Shown here piece by piece: positions 1,685 to 40,913 of a stretch of DNA of 42,541 bases. Position numbers and translations under genes: made by a program. Location of the stretch: the IMG/VR virus record IMGVR_UViG_2529293215_000009, one strand, 5' to 3'. Position 1 is the first letter of the stretch, and every line of letters begins with the position of its first letter. The notes beneath the pieces are model-generated. The model worked only from the letters and a program-made list of their open reading frames with translations, was not told where the DNA came from and did not search any database. The stretch is from a virus (Duplodnaviria > Heunggongvirae > Uroviricota > Caudoviricetes).

Positions 1685-1689
1685 ACGCC
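1685..1689. repeat. candidate 5-bp target-site duplication (ACGCC), left copy
   Basis: ACGCC directly precedes putative left terminus TGTAACC; identical pentamer at 40909..40913 directly after right terminus. Confidence 0.45.
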
Positions 1690-1862
1690 TGTAACCAGGT
1701 GAATCATTTGATACCAACGAGGGTTTTAGTGAAAGGAGGTGAAATCACCTGTAAGATACTGAAATAAAACAGGTGATGTCTGGATGAGCGCTTAAAGTCT
1801 ATTTGATACCGATTGTGCAATAATTAATCGTTTATTCTAAAATCGGCAAAACTTTTGATACT
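1690..1862 (+). repeat. left end (attL-like) with three TTTGATAC(C/T) putative transposase-binding repeats
   Basis: TTTGATACC at 1707..1715 and 1802..1810, TTTGATACT at 1854..1862; same motif in inverted orientation three times at right end; starts 5'-TGTA like Mu. Confidence 0.55.
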
Positions 1863-1939
1863 GCGATCTCAACTTTTTAAAGCGTTTAAAACTTCATTAA
1901 ATCTATATGGCAACTAACATACGGGCCAGCCTCGCCAAA

Positions 1940-2470
1940 CTAACCCGCTTTAGATTCTACCGGATTTGATTGCCTACTTGTCTCGGTTTTTTCCAAAATC
2001 TCTCTGACGCAATCGTCTGGCATATCTACAATCATCAACGCAGCCAGGCGCTTCCTGCCTTCTAGTTGTAATAAATCCTGGTTTTCTTTATCCAGCAGTG
2101 TCAGAACCGTCTCTACACCTTTGCGAGCAAGGAGATTGGTTAACTGTTCTCGTTCGTCTTTCGTAAGGAATGAAAGCATCTGTGTAAGTTGATCTCCCTT
2201 ATCACCAGAACAACCAAAATTACCACAAATACCAACATCGTTTGGTGATTCACCCTTGCCCTCTTTAAGCCACTCAAGACTAACTCCTTCACTTTCAGAA
2301 ATTCGTATAAGGATACTTTCTCTGGGGGCTGGTTGTGTTTGTCCTCCCTTGAAATAGCTGTTTAATGTGTTGATATTGATTCCCCACGCTCTGGCAGCTG
2401 CACTTCTTGAAGGGTAGCGCTTTGTAAGCATTCCAATACGTTCAATAACAGGTTCTTTTCCCTGCGACAT
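1940..2470 (-). CDS. c: prophage repressor (c-like), HTH DNA-binding
   Basis: Minus-strand ORF next to left end and divergent from ner as in Mu; HTH-like SRSAAARAWGININTLNSYFKGG; start taken at ATG 2470 (MSQGKEP) with upstream AGAGG. Confidence 0.65.
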   Translation of the reverse strand: MSQGKEPVIERIGMLTKRYPSRSAAARAWGININTLNSYFKGGQTQPAPRESILIRISESEGVSLEWLKEGKGESPNDVGICGNFGCSGDKGDQLTQMLSFLTKDEREQLTNLLARKGVETVLTLLDKENQDLLQLEGRKRLAALMIVDMPDDCVREILEKTETSRQSNPVESKAG

Positions 2471-2552
2471 AAAGATACCTCTTGGTGCTTTTCTAAGGAA
2501 AGGTTTCTTTCTATTTATCCAATTGAAAAATAAGGATAAAAGCAAAAATTAG

Positions 2553-2587
2553 CCAAAATACCAAAAATACCTTGATTTGGTATTTTT
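2553..2587. promoter_or_regulatory. operator-like repeats between c and ner
   Basis: CCAAAATACC AAAAATACC ttgattt GGTATTTTT: perfect 9-bp inverted repeat with 7-bp spacer plus a direct copy, in the divergent c/ner control region. Confidence 0.5.
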
Positions 2588-2600
2588 AGTGATGCATTAT

Positions 2601-2640
2601 TTACCCGTGCAGATATCCGCACGAATATCCGCGCGGGTAA
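2601..2640. promoter_or_regulatory. second operator-like element (inverted TTACCCG arms enclosing tandem ATATCCGC)
   Basis: TTACCCG at 2601..2607 and CGGGTAA at 2634..2640; ATATCCGC at 2613..2620 and 2625..2632, about 20 bp upstream of ner ATG. Confidence 0.4.
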
Positions 2641-2660
2641 CTTTTTAGAATAGAGGAAGT

Positions 2661-2909
2661 ATGAGTAGAAGAGAAGTTTCAGATCACGATTGGCCGCCTG
2701 AAATCATCAAGGCGCGCTTACACATGGCTGGCTTATCACTGCGCTCTTTATCTTTAAAGGCTGGTTACAGCAGGGATTCGCTGAAAAGCGTATTACGTAC
2801 TCCTTGCCGACCGTATCAGCAAATAATTGCTGATGCTCTTGGGGTATCGCCTGAAGAAATCTGGCCCAGTAGATACCAGGTTAAGAGCTATATGAGAAAG
2901 GCGTCATGA
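2661..2909 (+). CDS. ner: Ner-like DNA-binding regulator (Nlp/Ner family)
   Basis: 82 aa; C-terminal QQIIADALGVSPEEIWPSRYQ closely matches Mu Ner EQIIANALETKPEVIWPSRYQ; position immediately upstream of transposase. Confidence 0.85.
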   Translation: MSRREVSDHDWPPEIIKARLHMAGLSLRSLSLKAGYSRDSLKSVLRTPCRPYQQIIADALGVSPEEIWPSRYQVKSYMRKAS

Positions 2910-2910
2910 T

Positions 2911-39026: not shown

Positions 39027-39272
39027 ATGCCAGAGATTAAAGGCACGGTTACTGAAGAGCTTGTCAAACAGGCACTTTATTCTGAAGAAGTGAACCGCGT
39101 GCTGAAGGCGCAGGTTCGCAAGGATTTTGAGGCACAAATCGACGCATATGTTGATGAAGTGCTGGCCCGAATGGTTGGCCGTTCTCCGGCTGAAAACAGC
39201 ACGGAAAATGATCCTCAACCCGTAGAGCAACCAGAGCCGGTTCAGCCCGGAACTGACGGTACTATGATGTAA
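39027..39272 (+). CDS. hypothetical small acidic protein
   Basis: 81 aa ORF preceded by AAGGAGA. Confidence 0.4.
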   Translation: MPEIKGTVTEELVKQALYSEEVNRVLKAQVRKDFEAQIDAYVDEVLARMVGRSPAENSTENDPQPVEQPEPVQPGTDGTMM

Positions 39273-39590
39273 CAATACCGACCGGCAGGTTTCCCTGCCG
39301 GGTGAGTTTGTTAATGCACGTTTTGTGTATTTTCCCTCCTGGGAGAACAGGCAGGACATATCAGCATCCTGAAACAGGAAGCATTTTTGGGTTTGTATGT
39401 CTTGCCATTTTGAGATCGAGAACGGCGATAGATGAGCTGTAAGGGAGTCTTACAGGCAGGGCAAACAGGCTCTTTCATCCATGATAAAGATCTCCTTTTT
39501 ATGCATCTCTGCTTTACAGGAGACCGGGGAATATCATAGGATACGCCACGAGCTCGAAGTAAAGCATTGATGCAAGTTTTTACAGATTGA

Positions 39591-39616
39591 CCCAGCATAG
39601 TTCCAGCTATGCTGGG
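39591..39616 (+). terminator. intrinsic terminator (10-bp perfect stem)
   Basis: CCCAGCATAG ttccag CTATGCTGGG followed by TTTCACTTTTAT. Confidence 0.6.
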
Positions 39617-39668
39617 TTTCACTTTTATGTAGTATCCTGTTGATTTGAAACATACTACATATACGCGT

Positions 39669-39842
39669 GATCCTACCTTCACTGTATAAAAAGTCAATAA
39701 AATGATCATTTTATGATCGTTTTCACCACCTAACTCTTCGTTTTCTTTAAGTAAATAATCACCTCCCTGAATCATTGTTGATGACTTTTCAATCTATTTG
39801 TTGTATCAATTAAACAAATCGAATCGATCGTTTTTGTCGATC
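39669..39842 (+). promoter_or_regulatory. putative com-mom control region with clustered Dam (GATC) sites
   Basis: GATC at 39669, 39704, 39715 and, within duplicated TCGATCG octamers, at 39826 and 39839; all within 50-220 bp upstream of com. Confidence 0.5.
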
Positions 39843-39889
39843 GATTGCATGAGAAAGGCATCAACAACAAAGCAGGAGGTTATGCGGTC

Positions 39890-40090
39890 ATGTATCGAAA
39901 CATACGGTGCCGACACTGCAATAAGCTACTGGCACGGGCCAGTTTCAGTTATCTGGAAGTAAAATGTCCGCGCTGTAAAACCCTCAATCAAATCACATCT
40001 CCGAGCGCCACAGAGCACCCCACATACACAAGGAAATCCTGTCGTGGGGAACAGAAAGCAAGTCACATCCCGAATCATCAGCACGCCTGA
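39890..40090 (+). CDS. com: Com translational activator of mom (zinc finger)
   Basis: ORF 39845..40090, ATG at 39890; [26 protein letters not shown]...EHPT matches Mu Com IRCKNCNKLLFKADSFDHIEIRCPRCK...EHPT. Confidence 0.85.
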
Positions 40091-40781
40091 ACTTATTCGC
40101 TATAACGACAATATCGTTGGTTATGGCTCCCGTGAGTTGCGGGTTGAGACAATAAGTTGCTGGCTGGCCAGACTGGTCATCGTCAATAAACATTACAGCC
40201 ACCGTTTCGTAAATAACTCCTACCTTCATCTGGGCATATTTTCAGAACGGGAACTTGTTGGCGTAATGCAATGGGGTTACGCCCTTAACCCAAACAGTGG
40301 TGCACGCGTCGTAACGGGTACGCAGAACCGAGAATATATGGAGCTTAACCGGCTATGGCTGCATGACTGTATGCCGAGAAACTCCGAATCAAGGGCAATC
40401 AGTTACGCGCTCAAGCTAATCAGGCAGCTTTATCCGCAGGTACAGTGGGTTCAGTCGTTTGCAGATGAGCGTTGTGGCTGTCTTGGTGTCGTGTATCAGG
40501 CAAGCAATTTTGATTATGTAGGCAGCCATGAATCAATATTCTATGAACTTGATGGCGAGTGGTATCACGAGATTTGCAGGAATGCCATTAAACGAGGCGG
40601 ACAACGAGGTGAACATCTGAGGGCTAATATTGACAGAGCCAGTGTTCATAAGTTCCGACAGTTTCGTTACATCCGGTTTCTGAACAAGAGGGCCAGAAAA
40701 CGCCTCAACACAAAGCTATTCAAAGTCCAGCCTTACCCAAAACCACAAACAGTTAAAACTGGTTTGAAAGAGAGTGAATGA
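40044..40781 (+). CDS. mom: Mom-like DNA modification protein
   Basis: 245 aa ORF overlapping the 3' end of com as in Mu; last gene before right end; GTG start uncertain. Confidence 0.7.
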
Positions 40782-40826
40782 GCGCTTAAAAACTCATTCT
40801 AAAACTCAAAAGAAAAGCGCCGATTT

Positions 40827-40908
40827 AGTATCAAATAAGTTGCGTATCGGCGTTTTTCAGCGGTATCAAATGAAATGCAAATCGGTATCAAAAAAATCGC
40901 CGCGCTAT
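40827..40908 (+). repeat. right end (attR-like) with three inverted copies of the terminal motif
   Basis: AGTATCAAA at 40827..40835, GGTATCAAA at 40862..40870 and 40884..40892; outermost copy extends to AAATCGGTATCAAA, inverse of left TTTGATACCGATT. Confidence 0.55.
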
Positions 40909-40913
40909 ACGCC
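40909..40913. repeat. candidate 5-bp target-site duplication (ACGCC), right copy
   Basis: ACGCC identical to 1685..1689. Confidence 0.45.

Follow-up and report, generated by a model that had tools for sequence, protein, structure and literature searches.

The window analysed here, the 42,541-nt stretch of viral DNA filed in IMG/VR as IMGVR_UViG_2529293215_000009, very probably holds a Sp18-type, Mu-like transposable phage that entered a lambdoid prophage of Escherichia coli O157:H7 by transposition, within the DUF4752 gene of that prophage. The prophage is complete, occupies positions 1690 to 40909 on the plus strand (39,220 bp) and has the ends 5'-TGTAACCAGG...CGCCGCGCTATA-3', as judged from the identity of its left 3.3 kb to GenBank LC727881 and LC727895 and from the recurrence of the same ends at 11 other target sites. 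This is a joint reading that includes the termini, a 4-bp target-site duplication (CGCC) and three motif copies at each end that would be sites for the transposase. An earlier note on this sequence had read the two ends as those of a Mu-like transposable prophage, a reading that the empty site, the gene content and the same ends at many targets support. The prophage boundaries are thus fixed to the base, and the disruption of the host DUF4752 gene is attributed to a single transposition event.

At its left junction the window reads ...CTGAACGCC/TGTAACCAGGTGAATCATTTGATACC..., and its right region reads ...GGTATCAAAAAAATCGCCGCGCTATACGCCGGCCTGG.... The pentamer ACGCC, which the earlier note had seen adjoining both proposed termini, is present at 1685-1689 and at 40909-40913. 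Because the window holds 142 copies of this pentamer, its presence says little by itself, and it is the empty site that gives it meaning. An artificial empty site was constructed by joining window positions 1290-1689 to 40914-41313 with a single ACGCC kept, and the expected sequence of the uninterrupted target is ...CTGAACGCCGGCCTGG.... This construct matched 293 complete E. coli genomes, mostly O157:H7, at 100% identity over all 800 bp and in one piece, and the insertion is therefore genuine. In these genomes a lambdoid prophage contains the empty site, within its DUF4752 gene; the replication gene P lies upstream, and DUF4406 and ead/Ea22-like genes are neighbours. In the window the Mu-like phage breaks the DUF4752 gene about 15 codons in. 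The window's own junction was found in 0 of 5,426 complete E. coli genomes. The uninterrupted site coincides exactly with the left junction proposed earlier, 1689/1690, while the right junction falls at 40909/40910, one base beyond the proposed 40908/40909.

That single base separates a 4-bp duplication (left copy 1686-1689, right copy 40910-40913, on the evidence of the empty sites and of the family's other insertions) from the 5-bp, Mu-type duplication of the earlier note, which was not borne out. An exact 4-bp repeat flanks 14 of 14 independent insertions of the Sp18-type phage family, the window counted. Junctions in two GenBank records of Shiga toxin (Stx) phages read AGAG/TGTAACC...GCGCTATA/AGAG and CATC/TGTAACC...GCGCTATA/CATC, and copies in complete genomes are flanked by ATTA (in dcuC), GATA (in the IS609 tnpA), TTCG (in a DUF1367 gene), GAAT, TGCG (ycjT), ATAG (comR), TACG, ACTA (ydeE) and CAGA (tssM). 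Two IMG/VR relatives of a diverged subgroup have GATA and AGGA. The feature tables of LC727881 and LC727895 place the ends identically and list a 4-bp 'duplication due to insertion of Mu'. A further copy, in strain 2010C-3347 (NZ_CP034806.1), has unrelated 4-mers at its ends (CAAC and TGCC) and different genes on each side; there are two copies in that genome, which suggests inversion or recombination between them, and this copy was left out of the count as a recombinant.

The alternative is a canonical Mu-type insertion, in which the element would end at 40908 (...GCGCTAT) and a 5-bp staggered cut would have duplicated ACGCC. It draws on the literal presence of ACGCC on both sides, on an empty site for the window that fits a 4-bp or a 5-bp model alike, and on the 5 bp that Mu itself makes (PMC8705779). 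True Mu in E. coli W, treated by the same procedure, indeed gave the textbook 5 bp (GCCGC/TGTATTG...CGCTTCA/GCCGC); this control comprises one insertion, the copies in E. coli W and B-766 having turned out to be the same, and a scan of IMG/VR for contigs holding both Mu ends found none. Against the 5-bp model, the base just inside the right repeat is A in 14 of 14 insertions, while the two sides disagree at the fifth base in 11 of the 13 insertions other than the window's. Just three of the 14 (the window, ERL06-2497 and L065) have A as the host base 5' to the left repeat, the rate expected by chance. Empty sites were found for two of the 14 targets, the window's and dcuC, and the second is decisive: the dcuC flanks joined with a single ATTA match intact dcuC at 100% over 500 bp (...GGGAC-ATTA-TCGAG...), and intact dcuC has C, not the required A, before ATTA, so that the A before the right-hand repeat is phage-derived. 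Moreover, the outermost motif copies of the two ends, L1 and R1, are equidistant from the termini (17 nt) only if 40909 is the last base, and the related records annotate 4 bp. The junction data thus already refute the 5-bp model, to which we attach practically no probability. The A at 40909 is the last phage base and its match to the host A at 1685 is coincidental; a constant A beside variable host bases places the element at 1690-40909 and makes the duplication CGCC. Schemes in which the left T or the right A is moved into the duplication, an old flank base is carried over, or a 5-bp repeat bears one mismatch were also considered and rejected, the T and the A being constant while neighbouring host bases vary. 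Boundary finders that seek TG...CA and a 5-bp repeat would misplace the right end by one base, as happened in the earlier note.

The element belongs to a phage type that is already known, together with its ends and its 4-bp duplication, from public records. Its left 3.3 kb is 98.6-98.8% identical to the 'inserted Bacteriophage Mu-like phage' segments of the Stx-converting phage records LC727881 and LC727895, and 231-232 of the 5,426 complete E. coli genomes match its left and right ends; the copies lie at many loci, as many as four in a single genome, and element lengths are 38,756-39,222 bp. Near-identity to Sp18-type copies and identical termini were both found, and the insertions fall at essentially random sites (14 targets, all different and all flanked by an exact repeat). 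Previous studies have found that DNA of Sp18, from E. coli O157:H7 Sakai, is packaged and not circularised (PMC2669165), that Sp18-like phages occupy strain-specific, variable loci (PMC7430833), and that other prophages, Stx phages among them, frequently harbour them (PMC10132054). Sp18 and the Sp18-like 'Mu_JNE...' phages within Stx phages share the terminal sequences, the gene order and the annotated 4-bp duplication with the present element, which differs in its insertion site (the DUF4752 gene) and in minor sequence and accessory-gene variation. No description of a 4-bp duplication, or of the end sites of Sp18-like phages, was found in the searchable literature, where the ends of other Mu-like phages were looked for as well, the 4 bp being recorded in GenBank feature tables only.

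It could be argued that the ends are relics of a defective or 'grounded' prophage whose sites no longer function. Some annotated copies do carry frameshifts (E2865), and the 2010C-3347 copy lacks a duplication. In the window, however, all the long open reading frames (ORFs) expected from annotated intact copies are open, and both ends and the duplication are perfect. The near-identical copies at many loci, up to four per genome, and the packaging of Sp18 DNA (PMC2669165) also speak for an active phage, and we regard a relic as quite unlikely.

The ends themselves are marked by the word TTTGATAC, which occurs nine times in the window against 1.09 expected, a count reached in 0 of 100 shuffles. 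Six of the nine copies lie inside the two terminal 175-bp stretches in inverted orientation, on the plus strand at 1707, 1802 and 1854 and on the minus strand at 40828, 40863 and 40885; read as 9-mers with a closing C or T, the right-hand copies start at 40827, 40862 and 40884, so that all six positions are exactly those given in the earlier note. On the left, motif search defines L1 (TTTGATACC, 1707-1715, 17 nt from the terminus), L2 (TTTGATACC plus GATT, 1802-1814, offset 112) and L3 (TTTGATACT, 1854-1862, offset 164), all on the plus strand. On the right, with the cores on the minus strand, it defines R3 (TTTGATACT, 40827-40835, offset 74 from the right terminus), R2 (TTTGATACC, 40862-40870, offset 39 and 22 bp from R1) and R1 (TTTGATACC plus GATT, 40880-40892, its core starting 17 nt from the terminus). 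In relatives, L1 and the three right-hand sites keep these offsets. If the element ends at 40909, exactly 17 nt separate each of the L1 and R1 cores from its own end. The 13-mer TTTGATACCGATT, reported earlier as a core common to the second left site and the outermost right site, occurs once per strand, at L2 (1802-1814, plus) and at R1 (40880-40892, minus). The three right sites fit GC-N6-TTTGATACY, and L1 and L2 fit it in part; each end site is probably 16-18 bp or longer, judging from these alignments.

Relatives of the transposase and of Mom, taken from IMG/VR, fall into three groups, and the motif architecture recurs at fixed offsets in all of them. Group A (transposase at least 89% identical to that of the window) has the core TTTGATAC at left offsets 17/112/164 and right offsets 17/39/74, which are kept despite immunity regions of differing length and sequence. 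Group B (78-79% identical) has the same core at 17/121/163 on the left and 17/39/74 on the right. Group C (71-76% identical) is without any TTTGATAC and instead carries TTCAAGATAA at all six equivalent positions, with left offsets 17/88/140 and right offsets 17/39/74. Across the groups the orientation, the 17-nt distance of the outermost site from each terminus and the right-end spacings of 22 and 35 bp are thus conserved, while the word changes in concert at six positions. By these conserved offsets and this concerted change, the triplicated inverted motifs described in the earlier note would act as end-binding sites for the transposase.

A sliding-window comparison of the window's transposase with those of L041, L048, L055, L056, L062, L065, L067 and L071 suggests where such recognition may reside. 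Residues 200-640 are about 95% identical in all groups. Residues 1-60 show 20-50% identity between phages with identical ends but different immunity regions, varying as an operator- or enhancer-binding module like MuA I-alpha would. Residues ~120-200 show 28-47% identity in group C, compared to 55-90% in group B, and because this segment diverges together with the motif it is a good candidate end-recognition domain that probably reads the end motif. The paired change of an end motif and a short transposase segment offers a handle for mapping end recognition.

The TTTGATAC repeats are, on this comparative evidence, very probably transposase-binding sites. They could instead bind another phage or host protein (the repressor, Ner, a factor for packaging or pac recognition, or a bending protein of the IHF/HU type), with the transposase recognising other, less obvious end sequences. 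The Mu pac site and HU site are also within the left end of that phage, and Pfam finds no MuA-type end-binding subdomain in the transposase. However, both ends bear the copies, inverted relative to each other, and at each end the outermost copy sits exactly 17 nt from the cleavage point; the right-end spacings of 22 and 35 bp are kept across subgroups. Functions in packaging (pac) or immunity are required at a single end. Furthermore, phages with identical motifs differ in their immunity regions and in transposase residues 1-60, while the switch to TTCAAGATAA tracks divergence in residues 120-200. Recognition of the repeats by some other protein therefore appears improbable.

The terminal sequences were compared across the same insertions. 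The left terminal 17 nt (TGTAACCAGGTGAATCA, 1690-1706, plus strand) have an inferred cleavage at 5'-TG, i.e. CA-3' on the bottom strand, and this junction is invariant in all insertions. The right terminal 17 nt (...AAAATCGCCGCGCTATA, 40893-40909, plus strand) end in TA-3', with cleavage and transfer presumed at the terminal A, and are invariant in 12 of 12 group-A insertions; in groups B and C the right terminus is ...GCGCGCTTTA. Across the 14 insertions the left end begins T(G/A)T or TAA and the right end finishes ...CTATA or ...CTTTA, with TA in every copy examined. Left starts among the relatives are TATAACC, TATAGAG, TATGAAG, TATGACT or TAAGAAG, and some E. coli relatives (PO06021, L041, L055 and L067) have TA at both ends. 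The Mu hallmark 5'-TG...CA-3' is thus absent, the left end being TG (TA in some relatives) and the right end TA.

Several observations weigh against the assignment of these ends and motifs to the transposase. It is comparison between relatives that points to binding of the transposase to the six cores, and group C differs from the others in further genes too, so that the co-variation of the motif with residues 120-200 is suggestive and not proof. Little is shared among the six sites outside the 9-bp core. R3 is oriented like R1 and R2, unlike the inverted R3 of Mu as read from the Mu sequence. None of the MuA end-binding subdomains is detected by Pfam in the transposase, HTH_Tnp_Mu_1 and Mu-transpos_C alone passing the threshold. 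Finally, substitution of the terminal CA is harmful in Mu, and on that ground a TA-3' end should perform poorly; the many independent insertions argue that a TA-3' end works for this transposase.

We hypothesize that the MuA-family transposase (encoded at 2911-5001) binds sites of about 16-18 bp with the core TTTGATAC(C/T) at L1-L3 and R1-R3, and that L1 and R1 would place its DDE active sites on the terminal YA-3'. The two ends would then be synapsed, nicked and joined to target DNA captured by a MuB-like ATPase (5072-6004). The two joins may be made 4 bp apart, compared to 5 bp in Mu, with gap repair or replication giving the CGCC repeat.

The element resembles Mu in having three putative transposase sites per end with the outermost adjoining the terminus, in L2 and L3 lying about 100-160 bp in, in the 22 bp between R1 and R2, and in a left end that starts 5'-TGTA. 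The gene order c-ner-A-B...com-mom is also that of Mu, and its Mom is about 79% identical to Mu-type Mom. It differs in a core (TTTGATAC) unrelated to the Mu consensus, in an R3 that is not inverted, in a right terminus of TA-3' and not CA-3', and in duplicating 4 bp and not 5; the low identity of its transposase to MuA and a repressor without similarity to the transposase N-terminus, both described below, are further differences. Published duplication lengths are 5 bp for Mu and 6 bp for B3 (PMC8705779), whereas all 14 insertions examined here have 4 bp. In Leptospira, transposable prophages of the B3-like kind have TA-TA ends, a B3/Tn552-type transposase and 6-bp duplications (PMC8705779); non-canonical TA termini are held in common with the present element, whose family differs by a MuA-type C-terminal domain and by its 4-bp duplications. 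A 4-bp stagger is known from retroviral integrases, e.g. those of murine leukaemia virus (MLV) and xenotropic MLV-related virus (XMRV) (PMC2857682). These too are DDE enzymes of the RNase H fold that join two 3'-A ends to target positions 4 bp apart, but the type of element, the end-recognition domains and the accessory ATPase differ, and the resemblance is mechanistic only.

The TA terminus and the 4-bp stagger are a poorly documented departure from Mu. We lean, with modest confidence, towards a broader statement: that the whole Sp18 family of enterobacterial MuA-type phages uses a 4-bp stagger and YA-3' termini (TA on the right, TG or TA on the left), with a natural swap of specificity from TTTGATAC to TTCAAGATAA alongside transposase residues ~120-200. 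The sequence facts behind this statement are firm. If it holds, the stagger and the YA-3' termini would run counter to the rule given in the literature, by which every Mu- or B3-like phage has TG-CA ends and a duplication of 5 or 6 bp, and the TTTGATAC/TTCAAGATAA pair might serve to examine how MuA-type transpososomes set their stagger length and recognise their ends. More generally, an abundant Mu-like family of E. coli departs from two hallmarks of Mu, the 5-bp duplication and CA-3', yet keeps the end architecture of Mu, a result of modest import for the field.

The gene content is that of a Mu-type phage, with genes for a repressor, Ner, MuA-like and MuB-like proteins at the left end and Com and Mom at the right. 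A putative immunity repressor lies on the minus strand (ORF 1940-2545; its homologue in the Prokaryotic Genome Annotation Pipeline, PGAP, spans 1940-2470), in the position equivalent to Mu c; this assignment is by synteny, with no Pfam hit, and no similarity was found between this repressor and the transposase N-terminus, though Mu c and MuA are related there. On the plus strand follow a Ner-like winged-helix regulator (2661-2909; Pfam HTH_35, E 2.5e-19), the 696-aa MuA-family DDE transposase (2911-5001; Mu-transpos_C 1.5e-17, HTH_Tnp_Mu_1 5.8e-6) and, adjacent to the transposase gene, a MuB-like AAA+ target-DNA activator (5072-6004; Phage-MuB_C 2.5e-25, AAA_22). The last gene before the right end, also on the plus strand, is the Mom DNA-modification gene (40044-40781; Pfam Mom, 4e-77). 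In annotated copies PGAP gives the order repressor, ner, A, B, gam, mor, lysis, head, tail, an invertible tail-fibre segment with recombinase, com and mom, and the Mu-type organisation is seen in the window's genes, in these near-identical copies and in the inverted repeats with their recombinase. Aligned over its full length, the transposase is only 22% identical to MuA (E 6e-11). In a PDB sequence search its catalytic core (DNG...GNPQGRGIIER) matches retroviral integrases and not MuA, with avian sarcoma virus (ASV) integrase at E 1.5e-4, and the DNG and GNPQGRGIIER motifs align to integrase catalytic residues. A permissive Pfam scan returned nothing usable for residues 141-330 and sub-threshold rve hits only for residues 291-550.

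The end regions contain further repeats. A 13-nt repeat, ATGAGCGCTTAAA, is direct rather than inverted and lies inside both ends, at 1784-1796 (upstream of L2) and at 40778-40790 (overlapping the mom stop codon). Each end also has an extra GATAC half-motif oriented like the full sites, at 1755-1759 on the plus strand (AAGATACTG) and at 40844-40848 on the minus strand (GCCGATACGC); some relatives have GATGC in place of the left one, which may therefore not be functional. The L1-L2 spacer holds a 12-nt inverted repeat, GAAATCACCTGT / ACAGGTGATGTC (1741-1752 and 1769-1780), possibly a pac or bending-protein site, whereas the spacer of groups B and C is like the stretch between L1 and L2 in Mu itself, CCGGGAGGA...GGGATYTGATGGGAT. 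Between the A and B genes, an inverted pair at 5035-5058 (TTTGATTA...GGTATCAAA) was considered as an internal transposase site and rejected; it is present in the closest relatives only, is absent from group B, which has the same end motif, and is probably due to chance. A conserved hairpin follows the transposase stop codon.

ARAGORN finds no tRNA in the whole window; PGAP marks a 'tRNA-OTHER' in three related copies (L006-L008), between the head-morphogenesis and virion-morphogenesis genes, at a position equivalent to about 19835-19955 of the window. The DNA flanking the element (1-1689 and 40910-42541) is lambdoid prophage with DUF1627, DUF4406, DUF4752, ead/Ea22-like and DUF551 genes. Inside the element, 182-nt inverted repeats (79% complementary) at 34516-34697 and 35719-35900 bracket about 1 kb of tail-fibre and assembly genes, with a serine-recombinase gene beside them at 35963-36523; together these form a G-segment-like invertible host-range switch. 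A 679-aa DUF6645 protein is encoded at 36623-38662, after the invertase and ahead of com/mom; its gene and the small DUF1378 and DUF826 genes that follow it are accessory cargo of the Sp18-type right arm.

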